Shown one piece after another: positions 14,184 through 24,540 of a stretch of 64,000 nt of DNA. The translations under genes and the position numbers were made by a program. The notes under the pieces are model-generated. The model saw only the letters and a list, made by a program, of their open reading frames with translations. It was not told where the DNA came from and did no database searches. Location: the NCBI GenBank assembly GCA_963825165.1, contig CAWGRY010000006.1:465086-529085 (forward strand), written 5' to 3'. Every line of letters starts with the position of its first letter. Within the stretch, counting starts at the first letter, position 1. This stretch comes from an uncultured Bacteroidales bacterium. GTDB lineage: Bacteria > Bacteroidota > Bacteroidia > Bacteroidales > VadinHA17.

Positions 14184-14265
14184 TGCGGATGAAGGGACTC
14201 GAACCCCCACGCCTTACGGCACAAGATCCTAAGTCTTGCTCGGCTACCAATTACGACACATCCGC
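14184..14265 (-). tRNA. tRNA-Leu(TAG), CCA not encoded
   Basis: GCGGATG acceptor stem, CAAGA-CTTAGGA-TCTTG anticodon arm, long variable arm, GGTTCGAGTCC; TAATTTTG -7 box at 14284-14277. Confidence 0.96.
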
Positions 14266-16146: not shown

Positions 16147-18324
16147 ATGTTTGCTGACAGCGCTATACATGATTATCTGAAACGATACTTCGGTTTTGAT
16201 ACCTTCAAGGGAAATCAGGAGGATATAATCAGGAGTATCCTCACGGGGAATGATACTTTTGTTCTGATGCCTACCGGAGGGGGCAAGTCTCTCTGCTACC
16301 AGCTGCCTGCGGTGATGATGGAAGGCACTGCCATAGTGATCTCTCCGCTGATCGCCCTGATGAAGAACCAGGTTGATGCGATGCGGAATTTCAACACCAA
16401 TGACGACGTTGCTCATTTCCTTAATTCTTCCCTTACGAAGACTGCCATTACGAAGGTCAAGGAGGATGTGATGCTGGGAAATGCCAAGCTCCTGTACGTG
16501 GCGCCGGAGTCTCTGACCAAGGAGGAGAATATTGATTTTCTCAGGAACATTAAGATATCATTCTATGCCGTCGATGAAGCTCACTGCATATCTGAGTGGG
16601 GTCATGACTTCAGGCCTGAGTACCGCAGGATACGTCCTATCATAGATACCATAGTTCGTGCACCCATAATAGCGCTTACGGCAACTGCCACGCCAAAGGT
16701 ACAGCATGACATACTGAAGAACCTCGGAATTAGTGATGCGCAGGTTTTCAAGTCGTCTTTCAACCGGCCCAATCTCTATTATGAGGTGAAGGCAAAGCAG
16801 GATGCTGCCAGGGAGATCATCAAATACATCAAGAATAATCCGGGCAAATCCGGAATCATTTACTGTCTCAGCCGTAAAAAGGTAGAAGAGCTGGCAGAGA
16901 CGCTCAAGGTTAATGACATAAAGGCCCTGGCCTATCATGCCGGGATGGATTCGGCCACACGGACCACCAACCAGGATAAGTTCCTGATGGAGGAGGCGGA
17001 TGTGATCGTTGCCACCATTGCCTTCGGGATGGGTATAGACAAACCCGATGTGAGGTATGTCATACACTATGACATGCCCAAGAGTCTTGAGGGTTATTAC
17101 CAGGAGACAGGCCGGGCGGGCCGAGACGGCGGGGAAGGGCGATGCATAGCATACTACAGCTACGATGATATTGTCAAGCTTGAGAAATTCATGCAGGGCA
17201 AGCCCATTGCCGAACAGGAAATAGGCAAGCAGCTCCTGCTTGAAACGGTATCTTATGCCGAATCATCAACATGCCGCCGCAGGATACTGCTGCACTACTT
17301 CGGGGAGGAATACAAGCAGGAGAACTGCGAGGCGTGTGATAACTGCCTGCATCCCAAGACACAGTTTGAGGGATCAGAATATGTTGTCAACGTCCTTGAC
17401 ACTGTGCTGGCGGTAAAAGAGAAGCACAAGGCAGACCACATAGCCAAGATACTGGCCGGTACACTTAATTCAGCCATTAAGTCGTACAAGCATCACAAAC
17501 TGGAAACCTTCGGCATAGATGAAGAAAAGGATGAGCGTTTCTGGAACATGGTCATCCGGCAGGCGCTTATCAACAAGCTGCTTAACAAGGACATAGAAAA
17601 CTACGGTCTCCTGGGGCTGACGCCGAAAGGCCATCTGTTCCTCGAGAAACCGCAGAGTTTCCTGCTCAACGAGGATCATGACTATACCGAATCTGAAGAC
17701 GAGGAGGCCTCTTTCGGTGCGCGTACAGCGGCTGCCGATGAGGAGCTGCTGAGCATCCTTAAGGATCTCAGGAAAAAGATATCGAAGCAGGCAGGCCAGC
17801 CGCCTTACAATATTTTCCAGGATCCATCCCTCGAGGAGATGGCCATACAGTATCCGGTCACGCTGGAGGAGCTGCAGAATATAACGGGTATCGGTGCAGG
17901 CAAGGCACAACGGTACGGCAAGGAGGTGGTGGAGGTGATCCAGAGTTATGTTGCCGAAAAAGAGATCATCAGGCCGCAGGACATGGTGGTCAAGTCGGTG
18001 GTGAACAAATCGGGACTGAAGGTTTACATAATTCAGAGCATTGACCGCAAGATGCCATTTGAGGATATAGCCAATGCCAAAGGGATAGAGTATGAGGACC
18101 TGCTCTCCGAGATTGAGGCTATTGTCGGCTCCGGAACGAAGCTTAACATAGAGTATTATCTGGATACGGTCATTGATGACGACCGTCAGCAGGACATCTA
18201 TTCATATTTCATGGAGGAAGCTGAGACGGGGTCTCTGACGGAGGCTATCGCCGAGCTGGCGGGTGAGTTCGAGGAGGAAGAGATACGGCTGATGCGGATA
18301 AAGGTGCTGGCCGAGGGGAACTAG
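16147..18324 (+). CDS. recQ: DNA helicase RecQ (RQC, HRDC, C-terminal HTH)
   Basis: MPTGGGKSLCYQ, DEAHCISEWGHDFRP, QETGRAGRDG, CRRR..C..CDNC. Confidence 0.97.
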   Translation: MFADSAIHDYLKRYFGFDTFKGNQEDIIRSILTGNDTFVLMPTGGGKSLCYQLPAVMMEGTAIVISPLIALMKNQVDAMRNFNTNDDVAHFLNSSLTKTAITKVKEDVMLGNAKLLYVAPESLTKEENIDFLRNIKISFYAVDEAHCISEWGHDFRPEYRRIRPIIDTIVRAPIIALTATATPKVQHDILKNLGISDAQVFKSSFNRPNLYYEVKAKQDAAREIIKYIKNNPGKSGIIYCLSRKKVEELAETLKVNDIKALAYHAGMDSATRTTNQDKFLMEEADVIVATIAFGMGIDKPDVRYVIHYDMPKSLEGYYQETGRAGRDGGEGRCIAYYSYDDIVKLEKFMQGKPIAEQEIGKQLLLETVSYAESSTCRRRILLHYFGEEYKQENCEACDNCLHPKTQFEGSEYVVNVLDTVLAVKEKHKADHIAKILAGTLNSAIKSYKHHKLETFGIDEEKDERFWNMVIRQALINKLLNKDIENYGLLGLTPKGHLFLEKPQSFLLNEDHDYTESEDEEASFGARTAAADEELLSILKDLRKKISKQAGQPPYNIFQDPSLEEMAIQYPVTLEELQNITGIGAGKAQRYGKEVVEVIQSYVAEKEIIRPQDMVVKSVVNKSGLKVYIIQSIDRKMPFEDIANAKGIEYEDLLSEIEAIVGSGTKLNIEYYLDTVIDDDRQQDIYSYFMEEAETGSLTEAIAELAGEFEEEEIRLMRIKVLAEGN

Positions 18325-18331
18325 GGGGGGC

Positions 18332-18366
18332 AATTATAAATTAAGAATTAAGAGTTAAGAATTGAA
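18332..18366 (+). repeat. 5 x AATTAAG-type heptamer repeat after recQ stop
   Basis: AATTATA AATTAAG AATTAAG AGTTAAG AATTGAA. Confidence 0.7.
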
Positions 18367-18411
18367 CTGTTAGCTGATTTTCAGTAGCGCTGCAGATTAA
18401 TTTATTTTTGT

Positions 18412-18731
18412 ACCCCGTAGGGGTTAAAGTATTGTAGAACAAAGGATCAGGTCACAATTTACCCCGTAGGGGTTAAAGTATTGTAGAACAAAGGATCAGG
18501 TCACAACTTACCCCGTAGGGGTTAAAGTATTGTAGAACAAAGGATCAGGTCACAATTTACCCCGTAGGGGTTAAAGTATTGTAGAACAAAGGATCAGGTC
18601 ACAATTTACCCCGTAGGGGTTAAAGTATTGTAGAACAAAGGATCAGGTCACAACTTACCCCGTAGGGGTTAAAGTATTGTAGGGCAAAGGATCAAGTCAC
18701 AACTTACCCCGTAGGGGTTAAAGTATTGTAG
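18412..18731 (+). repeat. REP-like array 1: 7 cores ACCCCGTAGGGGT-TAAAGTATT-GTAG, 49-bp period
   Basis: Cores start at 18412, 18461, 18510, 18559, 18608, 18657, 18706; near-identical 23-nt linkers AACAAAGGATCAGGTCACAAYTT. Confidence 0.95.
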
Positions 18732-18765
18732 AACGGTGATGCCCCCACCGGTCGTTTGCCGGTTG

Positions 18766-19878
18766 TCAGTCGCGTTTCCGGAAGTGACGGGAACAGGGGA
18801 AGATAGAAAGCACGGCGACGGTGATGAAGTAGAAGGGGTAAATCAGTTCGGATAACAGAAAGAGGAGAAGGGGCGGGTGCTCCTTTCTTTTTTTAAAGTT
18901 ATAGTATGTTATGAGGAAGTCAGGTATGAGGCGGATGGCATAGAGCAGGCCAGTGAGGAGCAAGTATTTTACTGAGATGACCGAGGCTGCTGCGGCGGCG
19001 GCGACGGCGGCGTTGCACGCCGCCGTGGCGGCGGCGAGAGTGATGGTAGCTGTGTCTCTGTAGTAATATGCCTTTGATGCCCAGCGAGCGCGCTGGCGTA
19101 ACAGCGCCGCCGCCGTGACCGCCCCGGCGGTCACCGCCGCCGCCGCACTGCCACCAATGTGCCTGATGGTGCCACCTGAACCCTTCACGGCGTGCAGGAG
19201 AAAAATATCATCACCGGATGCTATATCACTGCGAAGAACACCCGCATGCTTAAGATAAATATCCTTCCTGACCGCCATGTTGGCAGCATTGCACATCACA
19301 GGATGACCGGCAACAACCGCGGCCTCGGATATCGCCTGCAACGCCGAGAACTCAAAGCTGCCGAAATGTGATACAAAACCTTTACCTGCCTTCTGATAAA
19401 CTTCGCCAACGATCATATCTGCATTACAGGCAGCAAAGAATGCAGAATATGCGCTGACCCACCCCGGCCCGACGGCACAGTCAGCATCCGTCATGAGTAT
19501 CAGTTCACCGGCGGACTTTTCAATACCGTGACGCACAGCGCTTTTCTTACCCTGAAAAGGATTATAAATCAATCTTATGTTTACCCCTGGTTGCGGCCTG
19601 TGCTGAGCAATAAATTCACTTACGACAATCGGCGTTCTGTCGGTTGAATTATCGTTTACAATGATTACTTCCAGAAGGTCTTTCGAGTAATCCTGTTCTT
19701 CCAGGCTGTTAAGCAAAGTGACGATTGTCTTCTCTTCATTGCGGGCAGCGACTACCACGGAGACCCGCACTTTTCCCGGCGCGGCCGGCTGGTCTGCGTC
19801 ACGCTTCCTTTGCAGGAGAAGCCACAAGGCAAATATTCCTGCCGAATAAATTGCTACCGGTATTATCAGCCACCACAT
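18766..19878 (-). CDS. membrane GT2 glycosyltransferase (processive-type motifs)
   Basis: VVAARNEE, NDNSTD, GKKSA, TDADC, SGDD, RQRARW, N- and C-terminal TM segments. Confidence 0.9.
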   Translation of the reverse strand: MWWLIIPVAIYSAGIFALWLLLQRKRDADQPAAPGKVRVSVVVAARNEEKTIVTLLNSLEEQDYSKDLLEVIIVNDNSTDRTPIVVSEFIAQHRPQPGVNIRLIYNPFQGKKSAVRHGIEKSAGELILMTDADCAVGPGWVSAYSAFFAACNADMIVGEVYQKAGKGFVSHFGSFEFSALQAISEAAVVAGHPVMCNAANMAVRKDIYLKHAGVLRSDIASGDDIFLLHAVKGSGGTIRHIGGSAAAAVTAGAVTAAALLRQRARWASKAYYYRDTATITLAAATAACNAAVAAAAAASVISVKYLLLTGLLYAIRLIPDFLITYYNFKKRKEHPPLLLFLLSELIYPFYFITVAVLSIFPCSRHFRKRD

Positions 19879-19888
19879 ATAATATTGT

Positions 19889-20162
19889 CTACAATACCTT
19901 AACCCCTACGGGGTAAACTATAACCTGATCCTTTGTTCTACAATACCTTAACCCCTACGGGGTATGTTCATTAATCAATTACATGTTCTACAATACCTTA
20001 ACCCCTACGGGGTATGTTCATTAATCAATTACATGTTCTACAATACCTTAACCCCTACGGGGTATGTTCATTAATCAATTACATGTTCTACAATACCTTA
20101 ACCCCTACGGGGTATGTTTTTGACCAATTGCTTTGGCTACAATACTTTATGCGCTACGCGCA
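19889..20162 (-). repeat. REP-like array 2: 5 ACCCC-type cores plus 1 TGCGC-type core, inverted relative to array 1
   Basis: Plus-strand CTAC starts at 19889, 19938, 19988, 20038, 20088, 20137; last stem TGCGC-TAC-GCGCA. Confidence 0.95.
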
Positions 20163-20240
20163 ATAATTTTTCGTATCCCTTTAATGTTCTCTTGTTCAAA
20201 TGTTCAATTGTTCATTTTGCCCCCTGCCCCCTGCAACGTG

Positions 20241-20687
20241 CTACACCATCCACTCGTAAGTCTTATAATGTCTGCCATCCATCCCCATCGCCTCGTATGT
20301 GCTCTGAGCACGGATGTTCTCCGCTTCAACGTAAAGACGCAGTCCTGCAATGCCCTCTGCAACACCTGCCTGTTTTACATAGTCATACATCATAGTGAAG
20401 ATTCCCTTTCTGCGGTAACCGGGAACAACATAGACCGACTGGAACCACCATACATTGGCATTGCGCCAGTCGCTCCACTCGTATGTTGTCAGTAATGACG
20501 CCACCACTGAGTTACTATCCTCTGCCACGTAGTACTGCCCTTTCTTCGGGTCATGAAAGACAGCCATGACACCTTTGGTGACCGTCTCTGTTTTCAGCTC
20601 CATCCTTTCCGTCTCCATGGCCATAGCCTGCTGGAACCTTATTATTGCCCCGGCGTCGTCTGGGGTTGCCTTTCTGATTGTGATCAT
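20241..20687 (-). CDS. GNAT-family N-acetyltransferase
   Basis: IRKATPDDA, TYEWSDWRN, QSVYVVPGYRRKGI, LYVEAEN..AQ..Y. Confidence 0.93.
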   Translation of the reverse strand: MITIRKATPDDAGAIIRFQQAMAMETERMELKTETVTKGVMAVFHDPKKGQYYVAEDSNSVVASLLTTYEWSDWRNANVWWFQSVYVVPGYRRKGIFTMMYDYVKQAGVAEGIAGLRLYVEAENIRAQSTYEAMGMDGRHYKTYEWMV

Positions 20688-20688
20688 C

Positions 20689-20865
20689 CTACAATACTTT
20701 AACCCCTACGGGGTATATTTATTAATCAATATCATTTTCTACAATACCTGAACCCCTACGGGGTATGTTTATTAATCCATTACATTTTCTACAATACTTT
20801 AACCCCTACGGGGTATATTAAATGGTTTAATCTCATGGGCTACAATACTTGATGCGCTACGCGCA
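20689..20865 (-). repeat. REP-like array 3: 3 ACCCC-type cores plus 1 TGCGC-type core
   Basis: CTAC starts at 20689, 20739, 20789, 20840; 50-51-bp period; linkers related but not identical. Confidence 0.93.
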
Positions 20866-21014
20866 ATAATCTATCCTGCCCCTAACTCCCAACTCCCAGC
20901 TCCAGGTCCACAGCTCCCTTCTACAGACCCTTCCGCTTTGCGGGATTTGGTTTCGCCGAGCTTCGCATCGCTCCGGTGCGTCACTTAGTTCCTCAACTTA
21001 CGGTCCTAAAAAAT

Positions 21015-21049
21015 CTTAAATTTTAATTTTTAATTCTTAATTTTTAATT
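21015..21049 (-). repeat. 5 x AATTAAR heptamer repeat after carB stop
   Basis: Minus strand reads AATTAAA AATTAAG AATTAAA AATTAAA ATTTAAG. Confidence 0.7.
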
Positions 21050-21054
21050 CCTTA

Positions 21055-24000
21055 CTAGTACTCATCCCACGCCTTTATCTCCATCTCACTCTCCGGCACG
21101 GTGCAGAAAGCATGAATGAAGGCAGAAGCCAGTCGTGCATTGGTGATAAGAGGTATGTTATAGTCAACGGCAGTGCGTCGTATCTGGTAGTCGTTGTTCA
21201 GCTCGGTGGCCGAGAGATCCTTGGGAATATTTATAACCAGGTCTACCACCCTTTTCTTTATCAGCTCCACGGTGTTGGGGCTCTCTTTTTCATCAGGCCA
21301 GAACGCCACTTCAGCCTCTATCGAGGCGTTGTTCAAGAAACTGCTGCGTACCCCTGGTGGCATAGAGCTTATAACCACGGCTGCGCAGCAGGCGGGCGGC
21401 CTCAATCAGGTCGGCCTTCGATTTGGCCGGACCCGATGATATCAGTACTGCCTTCTCAGGCATGCGGTAACCAACTGAATACATAGCTTTTAGCAGAGCC
21501 TCGTAGAAACTATCACCTATGCATCCCACCTCGCCCGTCGAAGCCATATCAACACCCAGCACAGGATCGGCCTTGGCGAGACGCGAGAAGCTGAACTGGG
21601 AGGCCTTGACCCCTACGTAATCGAGATCAAAGACCGACTTGTGAGGCTTTTCCCAGTGTACTCCAAGCATTACTTTGGTGGCAAGCTCGATAAGGTTTGT
21701 CTTCAATACCTTCGACACAAACGGCATACTACGGCTGGCACGCAGGTTGCACTCGATGACCTTGATGTCATTCTCCCGGGCAAGAAACTGTATGTTGAAG
21801 GGACCAGAGATATTAAGCTCCCTGGCAATTTCCCGGGAAATACGTTTGATGCGCCTCACGGTTTCAAAATATATCTTCTGCGGCGGGAATACTATCGTTG
21901 CATCTCCTGAATGGACACCTGCATATTCAACGTGTTCGCTGATGGCGTAGGCAACAATATCCCCGGCTGCAGCTACAGCGTCAATCTCTATCTCCTTGGC
22001 ATACTCTATGAACTCTGATACCACAACAGGGTGTTCCTTGGAGACACTCGAAGCCAGCTCAAGGAAATGCACCAGCTCGCTTCTGTTTGACACCACGTTC
22101 ATTGCCGCACCGGAAAGAACATATGAAGGGCGTATCAGAACAGGGAAACCTATACCGTCGATGAATTTATCTATCTCCCCGAGACTCGTCAGCTCCTGCC
22201 ACCTGGGCTGGTCAACACCAAGGGTGTCGCACATCGACGAAAATTTATGCCGGTCTTCAGCCCTGTCAATAGATTCGGGTGGTGTCCCCAGTATCGGAAC
22301 ACCCTGTCTGTGAAGCCTCATTGCCAGGTTATTGGGTATCTGTCCGCCCATCGCAAGAATCACTCCCCTGGGCGTCTCAAGATCGATGATATCCATCACC
22401 CGTTCAAACGAGAGCTCATCGAAATAGAGACGGTCACACATGTCATAATCAGTGCTGACAGTTTCGGGATTATAGTTGATCATCACCCCTCGCAGTCCCT
22501 CGTGACGAATCGTATTGATAGCGTTGACAGAGCACCAGTCGAACTCGACGCTCGAGCCTATCCGGTATGCTCCCGAGCCCAGAACTATCACTGACCGCTT
22601 GTCGTTCTCATACCAGATGTCATGCTCCATCCCGCTGTAGGTGAGGTAGAGATAGTTGGTCACGGCAGGATACTCGGCAGCAAGCGTATCAATCTGCTTG
22701 ACGTACGGTACGATGCCGTTACTCTTACGGTGCCGGCGGACGCTGAGCATTGCATCATTGATTGTCTTGTTATCTGCCTTCAGCACATGGCGGGCTATCT
22801 GGAAGTCGCTGAAGCCGTAGATCTTGGCATGAAGCAGTTCCTGAACCGGGAGGCTCTCGATAGTGTTATATTTCTCAAGACTTTTTTTTATGTTTTCAAT
22901 GTTCTGCAGCTTGTACAGGAACCACCTGTCTATCTTCGTGAGCTCGCAGATGCGGTCAACGTCAAATCCTTTCTCCAGCGCCTCGGCTATTGAAAAGATT
23001 CGCATGTCTGTCGGCTGGGAGAGTTCTTTTTCGATATCCTTGAAGCTGAGATTACGGTTGCTGACGAAACCGTGCATTCCCTGGCCTATCATGCGCAATC
23101 CTTTCTGTATCGCTTCCTCGAAAGTGCGTCCTATGGCCATGATCTCTCCCACACTCTTCATGCTGCTGCCTATTTCGTGTGCCACACCCTGGAACTTGTT
23201 AAGGTCCCAGCGCGGTATCTTGCACACGATATAGTCGAGGGCAGGTTCGAAACAGGCTGTGGTGGTCTTTGTGACCGAGTTCTTAAGCTGGTGGAGGCCG
23301 TATCCCAGCGCCAGCTTGGCTGCGACAAACGCAAGGGGATATCCGGTGGCTTTGGAAGCCAGCGCGCTCGAGCGCGAGAGACGCGCATTGACCTCAATGA
23401 CCCTGTAGTCCTCTGAGTTGGGATCGAGGGCATACTGTACATTACATTCACCGATGATGCCGACGTGACGTATGATCTTTATCGACAGTTCCCTGAGCTT
23501 GTGATATTCGCTGTTGGTCAGTGTCTGTGAAGGAGCGACGACGATGCTCTCGCCGGTGTGAATACCCAGCGGGTCGAAGTTCTCCATGTTGCAGACGGTG
23601 ATGCAGTTGTCGAAGCGGTCGCGCACCACCTCATATTCAACCTCTTTCCAGCCTTTTAGCGATTCTTCTACCAGTATCTGGTCCGAGAAGGTGAATGCCC
23701 TGCCGGCAAGAGCCTTCAGTTCCTCGTTGTCTGAACAGAACCCGCTGCCCAGTCCGCCCAGGGCATAAGCTGCCCGTATGATAATAGGGAACCCCAGCTT
23801 CCCGGAGGCCTTTAATGCGTCTTCAACATTGGTGACAGCAATGCTGCGCGGAGTTTTTACGTTTATCTCATCGAGCTTTTTTACGAAGAGCTCACGGTCC
23901 TCCGTTTCCATGATTGCGCTTACGGGAGTACCCAGCACCTTAACGCCGTATTTCTCAAATACACCCTCTCGGAAGAGTGTCGTGCCGCAGTTCAGCGCTG

Positions 24001-24280
24001 TCTGTCCGCCGAAGGCCAGGAGGACGCCGTCAGGCTTCTCACGGGCTATCACGCGTTCAACAAATTTCGGTGTGACGGGGAGGAAGTATATTTTGTCAGC
24101 TATTTTTTCAGAGGTCTGTACGGTGGCGATATTGGGATTGATGAGAACGGTAAAGATACCCTCCTCACGGAGCGCTTTCAGGGCCTGTGATCCCGAATAG
24201 TCAAACTCGCCGGCCTCGCCTATTTTCAGAGCTCCCGAGCCCAGCAGCAGTACCTTCTTTATCTCTTCCTGCATTGTCAT
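21055..24280 (-). CDS. carB: carbamoyl-phosphate synthase large subunit, split by a 1-nt frameshift near 21338-21340 in the MGS domain
   Basis: [17 protein letters not shown] and two ATP-grasp halves; frame 1 stops after [10 protein letters not shown]; the next frame continues [13 protein letters not shown]...[25 protein letters not shown]. Confidence 0.93.
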
Positions 24281-24326: not shown

Positions 24327-24405
24327 TGGCAAGTCTTAATCCTCTACGAGGAATAAATGTTAATTAACCTCCTTTTCTGCTACAATACCTGATGCGCTAC
24401 GCGCC
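24327..24405 (-). repeat. REP-like array 4 (degenerate): TCCTC-TAC-GAGGA core plus TGCGC-type core upstream of carB
   Basis: Hairpin at 24340-24352; CTACAATACCTGATGCGCTACGCGCC at 24380-24405. Confidence 0.75.
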
Positions 24406-24540
24406 ATTCAAAAATCTTTCATTTGTAATAAACAAATACATCGTAGATGTTAAGGTATTATAGGACAGATGAAACGACCACATAAAAATTCCTCGAAAAT
24501 TATTAGGAAATCATTTCGAAAAAAATTGTATTTATAAATA

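Follow-up and report, generated by a model that had tools for sequence, protein, structure and literature searches.

Head-to-tail REP-type repeat arrays in the recQ-carB interval of an uncultured Bacteroidales bacterium: resident genes, and a likely partner in the genome's single Y1/HUH transposase

A 64,000-nucleotide (nt) stretch of the genome of an uncultured Bacteroidales bacterium of the VadinHA17 lineage (assembly GCA_963825165.1, contig CAWGRY010000006.1, positions 465,086 to 529,085; hereafter the window) carries, between the recQ helicase gene and carB, arrays of short palindromic repeats that end in GTAG and alternate with single genes. The question that this locus raises is whether the enclosed genes, a GT2 family glycosyltransferase and a GNAT acetyltransferase, were brought in as cassettes or whether the repeats settled among genes that were already there. 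A preliminary description of the sequence had reported repeat blocks in an array-gene-array-gene-array layout, and this is confirmed here, with four co-located blocks. Array 1 (18411..18734, plus strand) consists of seven head-to-tail units with an ACCCC stem and a 49-nt period; it lies between the convergent recQ and GT2 genes, just 3' of the recQ stop codon and in the orientation of recQ. It is followed on the minus strand by the GT2 gene (18766..19878; 370 amino acids; Pfam Glycos_transf_2, 6e-25), by array 2 (19889..20162), with five ACCCC units at 19889-20113 and one TGCGC unit upstream-most at 20137-20162, by the GNAT gene (20241..20687; 148 amino acids; Pfam Acetyltransf_1, 1.1e-12), by array 3 (20689..20865), with three ACCCC units at 20689-20814 and again one TGCGC unit upstream-most at 20840-20865, and finally by carB and a single unit beyond it. 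All units inside any one array point the same way, and the arrays plus the isolated unit all fall between 18411 and 24463. We believe, with a probability of roughly 0.8, that these arrays are head-to-tail runs of repetitive extragenic palindrome (REP)-type units, tied to a single Y1/HUH transposase, which expanded recently in the gaps of an old gene row (tatC-recQ / GT2-GNAT-carB / argR-argG).

The comparison of gene order indicates that GT2 and GNAT are old residents, not cargo. The row tatC-recQ-GT2-GNAT-carB-argR-argG recurs, with exceptions, across 17 loci from 16 congeners, and recQ is 87-99% identical in 16 of these loci. GT2 adjoins recQ in 16 of the 17 loci (the other ends first) with an identity of 41-86%, or 33% in congener G020, while a GNAT homologue, adjacent to GT2, was found in 17 of the 24 congeners searched and stands between GT2 and carB in 15 of the 17 loci. 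With a covariance model built from the units of this genome (R1), 11 of the 17 loci showed no unit between recQ and carB, including those of the nearest relatives G017 (recQ 99%) and G010 (98%). The preliminary description had suggested that the two genes were captured or shuffled at GTAG boundaries, the repeats serving as recombination sites analogous to integron attC. Since GT2 and GNAT are in place in congeners without any unit in the interval, we regard this suggestion as refuted and assign it a very small chance. It had further led one to expect variable cargo in related genomes, and that comparison disclosed no foreign gene in the interval in any of the 17 loci.

Capture nevertheless has some points in its favor. 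Besides the alternation of arrays and genes, convergent arrays bracket GT2 as they bracket the transposase gene described below; GNAT was not found at the locus in G016 (L032) and G002 (L033), the gap in G016 keeping the remnant of a unit tail; GT2 reaches 58-65% identity in genomes whose recQ and carB reach 90-92%; and arrays 2 and 3, in direct orientation on either side of GNAT, could mediate its deletion. The absence of GNAT from these two loci and the GT2 of G020 count against long residence, as do locus L025 (G019), which has no carB beside GNAT, and loci L029 and L035, which stop at contig ends. On the other side, no GTAG junction was found, including for the absence of GNAT and the divergence of GT2. 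In addition, the gap between GNAT and GT2 is 12-15 nt in G001, G019 and G021 (tblastn coordinates) and carB abuts GT2 in G002, so that carB-GNAT-GT2 looks like an ordinary operon. What might be left to cassettes is thus a small residue, namely the GNAT missing at 2 of the 17 loci and a GT2 far more divergent than its flanks.

Two further observations concern this gene row. In G005, G012, G016, G002 and G004 (L030, L031, L032, L033 and L035), GT2 carries near residue 150 an in-frame extra segment of about 100-240 nt rich in Gly, Ala and Pro, and the corresponding segment in G008 is degenerate, with internal stops; the in-frame segments of G005, G012 and G016 were considered as possible units and rejected as low-complexity coding sequence. 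Moreover, G019 has two copies of the recQ-GT2-GNAT region, on contigs C6 and C10 (L025 and L037), one of them without carB next to GNAT, which could be either a duplication or two strains binned together.

The repeats are built on one plan. When 48 of the 54 reference units were aligned (the other six being identical copies from arrays 1 and 2), the order was an invariant T, a 5-nt stem that always ends in C, the loop GTA, the return stem with G as its first base, another invariant T, three variable nt and the tail GTATTGTAG. GTAG occurs twice per unit, across the apex of the hairpin and at the 3' end, and a module of about 50 nt is made up of a conserved core of 26-27 nt plus a sequence-variable spacer of 22-26 nt. 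A pairing-blind search, for which only the CGTAG apex and the tail were required, yielded 66 units in the 3.68-Mb assembly; all four outer Watson-Crick pairs were present in 61 of them and three of four in the other five, with 15 perfect stem types, and we therefore consider the covariation of the hairpin to be strong. A strict genome scan gave 74 matches at about 17 loci, against six in a reversed-genome control. The ACCCC type is nearly confined to the recQ-carB locus, which holds 15 of the 17 exact palindromes of this type in the genome. In the window, these 15 copies of ACCCCGTAGGGGT (0.03 expected; 0 of 100 shuffles reached 15) are all inside the arrays, seven on the plus strand and eight on the minus strand. 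The TGCGC-type palindrome TGCGCGTAGCGCA is exact at 20150-20162 and 20853-20865, with a one-mismatch copy (GGCGC) at 24393-24405. The preliminary description had placed a TGCGC-type unit first in arrays 2, 3 and 4: this stands for arrays 2 and 3, whereas its fourth array is a single TGCGC-like unit (24380..24405, minus strand; stem GGCGC/GCGCA, one mismatch), whose GTAG lies 99 nt upstream of the carB ATG, beside a degenerate inverted unit (24438..24463, plus strand; stem ACATC, tail GTATTATAG) that faces argR. These two form a pair with adjacent hairpins and outward tails.

The periodicity of the arrays is equally marked. Tandem Repeats Finder reported a period of 49 at 18411-18734 (6.6 copies, 97% matches, score 606) and of 50 at 19888-20118 (4.6 copies, score 376) and 20689-20819 (2.6 copies, score 220). 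Successive units are 48-56 nt apart in 36 of 41 pairs in this genome and 45-53 nt apart in 63 of 79 pairs in four relatives, even though the 99 spacers comprise 74 distinct ones. The last module of array 2, which runs in the opposite direction, carries the spacer type of array 1 with three differences, and a spacer type of array 2 reappears, diverged, in array 3. At Rfam gathering thresholds nothing matched at the arrays, the sole match in the window being a tRNA at 14184-14265.

Arrays of this kind might be the product of mis-assembly, either of the tandem copies or of their junctions with start codons. Tandem 50-nt repeats that exceed the short-read length are hard to assemble, and one contig of run X1 joins 20688 to 20789, that is, with 100 nt (two units) fewer in array 3. 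However, units 1 and 3 of array 3 have more than 31 identical bases in common, and a k=31 graph, from which the contigs derive, would yield the skipped form by itself, so that we treated it as uninformative. Short-read contigs of runs X1 and X2 span the GNAT start into array 3, and contigs of X1-X3 cover the junctions between units and genes at 19844-19963, 20096-20254 and 20376-20716, with the proviso that X1 and X2 possibly derive from the source sample and would then not be independent support. Since similar arrays also occur at many loci in many independent assemblies, we give an artefact hardly any credence at all. Contigs of X4, a relative at 90-95%, join across arrays 2 and 3, in line with the other relatives; they were not used as evidence.

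The units are probably mobilized by an enzyme encoded elsewhere in the genome. The assembly contains exactly one match to PF01797 (Y1_Tnp; 78.5 bits), on another contig and therefore outside the window: a Y1/HUH transposase gene for 158 amino acids, resembling REP-associated tyrosine transposases (RAYTs), at C2:612041-612517. The largest unit cluster in the genome surrounds this gene and comprises at least 18 units, on the plus strand upstream and on the minus strand downstream, that is, in convergent orientation. With R1, units were found to flank the homologous transposase gene in 10 of 11 congeners, the short locus L066 being the exception, and were present at 18 of 80 loci from other genomes. 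Six loci of other Bacteroidales metagenome-assembled genomes (MAGs) have a plus unit about 105-140 nt upstream and a minus unit about 45 nt downstream of the transposase gene, with conserved stems (TCGCC on the left, AGCCC on the right); the more distant homologue loci (up to 56% identity) mostly gave no R1 match, and their repeats, if any, would differ. The distribution of units and enzyme points in the same direction. Counting units among the best 120 scored candidates per genome, 46 of 60 congeners have R1 units; the 11 congeners whose homologue is at least 64% identical each have 3-119 of them, and none of the 14 congeners with zero units carries such a homologue. We conclude that the single Y1/HUH transposase is the likely partner of the units, as far as their arrangement and co-occurrence can tell, and in this sense the REP-like sites of the preliminary description, hairpin-plus-GTAG repeats tied to a Y1 transposase, find support.

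The transposase itself displays the motifs DHIH, WQ and YILNQESHH, and the invariant columns among 11 homologues include H56, H58, W96, Q97, Y116, Q120, H123 and H124. Homologues come from genomes named as Bacteroidales/Bacteroidia MAGs. In a profile search of PDB the nearest entries were the TnpA proteins of ISDra2 (2xm3, E 2.9e-8) and IS608 (2a6m, E 1.2e-6), and no chain among the six matches at E <= 1e-3 was named as a REP-associated transposase. The NCBIfam model transpos_IS200 (IS200/IS605 family) matched with 57.4 bits, against a cut-off of 55. The open reading frame (ORF) ends within the first downstream unit (C2:612504-612517; L001 1949-1962), so that the final residues and the TAA stop are encoded by the tail of that unit, read on the opposite strand.

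How the arrays grew can be traced in part through the relatives. In the recQ-GT2 gap of G008 (recQ 98%) there is a single ACCCC unit, whose left and right flanks are those of array 1, and array 1 is therefore a one-to-seven expansion. G018 and G005 have TGCGC units in the corresponding spacer between GNAT and carB, which makes the TGCGC unit look older and the ACCCC modules like later arrivals between it and the gene. The variant-first-unit polarity noticed in the preliminary description recurs at other loci and in other genomes. At a response-regulator gene of G018 and G008 a TGCGC unit lies about 50 nt upstream of another unit, and in four relatives (40 loci with 38 multi-unit runs, 19 of them mixed) TGCGC comes first in five mixed runs and last in none, although three of the five share a TGCGC-TCCTC pair and are perhaps not independent.

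On this basis a mechanism can be proposed. The transposase would bind the hairpin on single-stranded DNA and, by analogy with the ends of IS200/IS605 elements, might cut twice, once at the GTAG tail some 13 nt to the 3' side of the stem and once about 24 nt to its 5' side. Cuts at these two places would release a module of about 50 nt, which could be re-inserted after the GTAG of a resident unit, and repeated re-insertion would extend an array in one direction, downstream from an older founder, here a TGCGC unit, and so make it polar. Replication slippage might then add identical neighbors. In this lineage the units probably colonized, and then expanded in, the three non-coding gaps of the row.

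A simpler possibility is that a relic repeat has changed in copy number purely through replication slippage or unequal recombination, with no transposase taking part. It would suit the neighboring modules of arrays 1 and 2, which are identical or nearly so, the difference of one versus seven units at a single site between G008 and this genome, and the several congeners that have many units and no detectable transposase. It does not account, however, for a period fixed at about 50 nt over 74 distinct spacers, for the same module type in opposite arrays 1.2 kb apart, or for the flanking of the transposase gene by units, which is conserved across genera. Considering the fixed length of the modules, their varied content and their copies on both strands, excision and re-insertion of about 50 nt of single-stranded DNA fits better than slippage alone, which we deem unlikely as a complete explanation.

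Transposition into these arrays is at the same time opposed by several observations. Nine congeners have 30-117 units and no detectable transposase homologue, which may reflect assembly gaps or gene loss, most of these nine genomes being fragmented MAGs. Array 3 is without the leader of 36-41 nt seen in G018 and G005 between the last GTAG and the ATG, an absence that would not result if modules were simply inserted behind the founder. The empty site of G010 at the response-regulator locus has a GTAG about 9 nt before the start of the G005 unit and not adjacent to it, and the comparison of empty and filled sites there gives an insert of about 30 nt whose junction lacks a GTAG; the window's own spacers are too diverged from those of G017 and G010 to be aligned for an insertion target. 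Identical neighboring modules fit slippage as well as they fit transposition, cleavage at the GTAG tail and insertion after GTAG are suggested by the anatomy of the units alone, and the GTAG directly 5' of the palindrome that is canonical in REPs is replaced by nT in the unit alignment.

The position of the last GTAG relative to the start codons was another argument of the preliminary description, and the two distances it gave are read directly from the sequence. In array 3, CTAC at 20689-20692 is separated by one base from CAT at 20685-20687, which makes GTAG-G-ATG on the minus strand at the GNAT start, and in array 2, CTAC at 19889-19892 lies 10 nt from CAT at 19876-19878, the GT2 start. Both ATGs are starts conserved in relatives (ATGATCAC/ATGATAAC for GNAT and ATGTGGTGG for GT2). 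A fixed distance, in contrast, did not hold in this genome or in four relatives. The 13 unit tails that face a gene start in this genome are at 1 (GNAT), 4 (response regulator), 10 (GT2), 1, 0, 38, 61, 83, 94, 99, about 100, 116 and 187 nt. The second value of 1 is a TTG start past the GTAG at C2:617338 that we left as uncertain, and the 0, a GTAG directly before an ATG at C9:179478, was rejected as an artefact of ORF extension, the start in G010 and G008 aligning about 51 nt downstream, at a GTG here. Of 62 runs in the relatives, 36 lie within 400 nt of a co-oriented ORF, with a median distance of about 88 nt; in four of the 36 the GTAG is within 10 nt of the start, three of these being before 214-amino-acid ORFs. 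These broad distances indicate that there is no general rule of GTAG at the start.

Such positions may still matter locally, and an alternative would be that the arrays are kept by selection as cis-regulatory RNA within the carB-GNAT-GT2 mRNA, where the hairpins and the tail beside the start codon would set the processing, stability or translation of each cistron, the link with the transposase being historical only. Arrays 2 and 3 are in sense between the carB, GNAT and GT2 cistrons, the single unit of the fourth block is in sense upstream of carB, and array 1 is in sense behind recQ, so that the transcripts probably carry hairpins. Classical REPs stabilize upstream mRNA. The response-regulator gene offers a striking case, with a GTAG exactly 4 nt before the ATG in five of six aligned genomes, on units with ACCTC or TGCCC stems, and two more genomes have a unit 4-5 nt before a 214-amino-acid ORF (L153, stem TCCTC; L180, stem TGCCC), taken as orthologues by size and start sequence only; this hints at local co-option or concerted replacement of the unit. 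Likewise, the predicted fold of the GNAT leader RNA (-52 kcal/mol) is somewhat better than that of shuffled sequences (z -2.06; 4 of 200 shuffles as good). Nonetheless, the nearest relatives lack any unit at these genes, the distances are otherwise broad, and units also occur antisense to both neighboring genes, for instance at C2:641545 and C3:900501. Judging from sequence comparisons, we find it doubtful that selection for an RNA function is what maintains the arrays. Under REP-type expansion, the reading that we prefer, a carB-GNAT-GT2 transcript would probably carry sense hairpins between its cistrons as well, and these may affect RNA stability or translation.

The genes on either side of the arrays and the other repeats of the neighborhood deserve a description of their own. 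The recQ gene (16147..18324, plus strand) encodes a protein with the Pfam domains DEAD, Helicase_C, RQC, HRDC and RecQ_Zn_bind. The gene for the large chain of carbamoyl-phosphate synthase, carB (21055..24280, minus strand; Pfam CPSase_L_D2, D1, D3 and MGS), is present here as two overlapping minus-strand ORFs in different frames, 21055-21405 and 21311-24280, whose offset of 256 nt is not a multiple of three. Both carB matches are in one frame in G017, by match coordinates, and the split could be either a frameshift in the assembly through sequencing error or a real break; contigs of the relative X4 show 1-nt differences at 21334 and 21338. AT-rich heptamer repeats of AATTAAG type occur at 18339-18363 and 21016-21049, starting less than 20 nt past the recQ and carB stops, and the motif is also seen behind stop codons in G017, G008 and G010; genome-wide, a loose pattern with two mismatches gave 96 such heptamers against 100 in the reversed control, that is, no excess. 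Another small hairpin motif (CCCGC, 4 nt, GCGGG, plus flanks) is present in the carB-GNAT spacer at about 20900-20950 and at C9:179557-179616 (L039 858-917), with 14 copies in this genome against six in the control and many near-copies in G008.

Repeats of other kinds fill the same spacers elsewhere in the genus. In the relatives, the carB-GNAT and GNAT-GT2 spacers (L026, L029, L031, L032 and L037), which are occupied here by the REP-type arrays, contain tandem copies of a second, unrelated palindrome. This repeat measures about 40 nt and has a GG/GT loop on a stem of about 8-10 bp, between flanks of the type GAGCG...GCGAGCAG. Short heptamer arrays, of GGCAGTA, GACTGAA and CAGTCAG types, occupy many of the spacers between genes in this genus (L024, L026 and L036 among others, and the response-regulator locus of G010, G017 and G018); those of GGCAGTA type have a GTAG in every repeat, and GGCAGTA doublets number 10 in this genome and one in the control. 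Finally, at C3:900439-900659 (L044 540-760) two units on the minus strand and one ACCCC unit on the plus strand combine into a composite repeat of about 101 nt; in its internal copy the start of the next inverted unit replaces the tail of the ACCCC unit, and its TGCCC(-)/ACCCC(+) pair, 6 nt apart, resembles an inverted doublet (REPIN-like).

These results explain the cassette-like layout of the locus and remove a false lead on gene capture. The fixed 50-nt module and the polarity of the arrays lead to a concrete prediction of where the enzyme would cut, and the presence of arrays in the carB-GNAT-GT2 row of one lineage and of none in its nearest relatives constitutes a natural experiment on the effect of such repeats on expression. 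They also carry a warning for annotation, since arrays of this type disrupt metagenome assembly and might pass for CRISPR-like or integron-like features.

The arrays can be compared with several systems that they resemble. As in integron cassettes, repeats alternate with single genes in one orientation. The genes here, however, are syntenic residents that stand in the same order in congeners, most of which have no units in the interval. Moreover, hairpin cores of 26 nt stand in multiple tandem copies instead of one attC per gene, and the linked enzyme is a Y1 HUH transposase encoded elsewhere. No integrase is found among the annotated neighbors (tatC, recQ, carB, argR and argG), no search aimed at IntI having been made. 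A CRISPR array, in which unique spacers of about 30 nt or more would separate identical repeats, was considered and rejected in view of spacers that measure 22-26 nt and recur within and between arrays, no search for cas genes having been made. In the literature covered, the cassette idea finds its nearest precedent in the prochlorosin genes of marine picocyanobacteria, where a REP-type transposase (TnpAREP) was proposed to shape the gene array, a proposal for which the authors, in a note added after submission, withdrew strong support for causality (bioRxiv 10.1101/2020.03.09.984088). The genes in the present case are conserved single-copy residents and not an expanded family.

Other features recall the elements of the IS200/IS605 family. 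Their ends have small subterminal hairpins with the cleavage tetranucleotide some 10-20 nt away (PMC8266576), a geometry similar to that of a unit with its distant GTAG. Their TnpA proteins are the nearest solved relatives of the transposase, and the head-to-tail units on one strand recall a left plus a right end. They differ in that IS200/IS605 elements are multi-copy with hairpins on the same strand, whereas here there is one gene copy with inverted flanking units, and 50-nt modules are repeated rather than full elements. No tnpB was seen beside the transposase gene in the sequence read.

The REP and bacterial interspersed mosaic element (BIME) repeats of Proteobacteria, with their RAYTs (TnpAREP, or "REPtrons"), share much with the system described here (PMC3733652, PMC6006769, PMC8266576). 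Each comprises tens to hundreds of copies of a short extragenic palindrome with a conserved GTAG, and a single-copy Y1 HUH gene surrounded by repeats in inverted orientation. In both, repeats occur as singletons, inverted doublets and tandem clusters, and repeat content is very variable between close relatives. The many-copy palindrome and the single, inversely flanked Y1 gene are thus features that this genome has in common with REP-RAYT systems. The architecture of the unit is different, with a 5-bp stem, a fixed GTA loop, and GTAG in the apex and about 13 nt 3' of the stem, as opposed to the GTAG or GTGG that REPs have 0-2 nt 5' of the palindrome (PMC6006769). The arrays run head to tail with a fixed period of about 50 nt, in contrast to the alternating REPs of BIMEs; mixed-orientation composites are present at C3:900.4-900.7k and beside the transposase gene. 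The enzyme, too, is nearer to the TnpA of IS200/IS605 than to TnpAREP, and it does not fall in class 2 (TnpAREP), its YILNQESHH and DHIH motifs fitting subclass 1.2 and its PDB matches being ISDra2 and IS608.

Subclass 1.2 of TnpA_Y1 is characterized by the signature DH[IV]H / WQ / Y---Q--HH, a mean length of 148 amino acids, low copy number and hosts among Bacteroidetes or Cyanobacteria (PMC6006769). Our transposase resembles it in its motifs, in its length (158 amino acids), in its single copy and in its Bacteroidetes-type host, the assignment being made by motifs alone and not by the clustering of Quentin et al. The table of that 2018 survey gives "no" for the secondary structure associated with subclass 1.2 (PMC6006769), whereas the gene described here is flanked by hairpin units that are also spread through the genome. 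In the literature searched for subclass 1.2 and for REP-RAYT systems in Bacteroidota, no account of such repeats was found. A repeat family would thereby be tied to a branch of Y1 enzymes listed in the survey without a partner structure, and REP-RAYT-type systems would be extended into Bacteroidota with another repeat geometry. We tentatively put forward, as a possibility that is still some way from being the favored one, that the subclass 1.2 Y1 enzymes of Bacteroidota are domesticated mobilizers of a new class of REP, defined by a 5-bp stem, a GTA triloop and a 3' tail ended by GTAG. They might paste a single-stranded module of about 50 nt behind a resident GTAG and so build polar arrays from a TGCGC founder, some units being co-opted at start codons, as perhaps at the response-regulator gene, where the position persists from species to species although the stem differs. 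Set against the systems above, and within the literature covered, three features look new: the atypical architecture of the repeat, an enzyme with subclass 1.2 motifs, a subclass for which no repeat partner had been reported, next to such repeats, and the polar arrays of fixed period.

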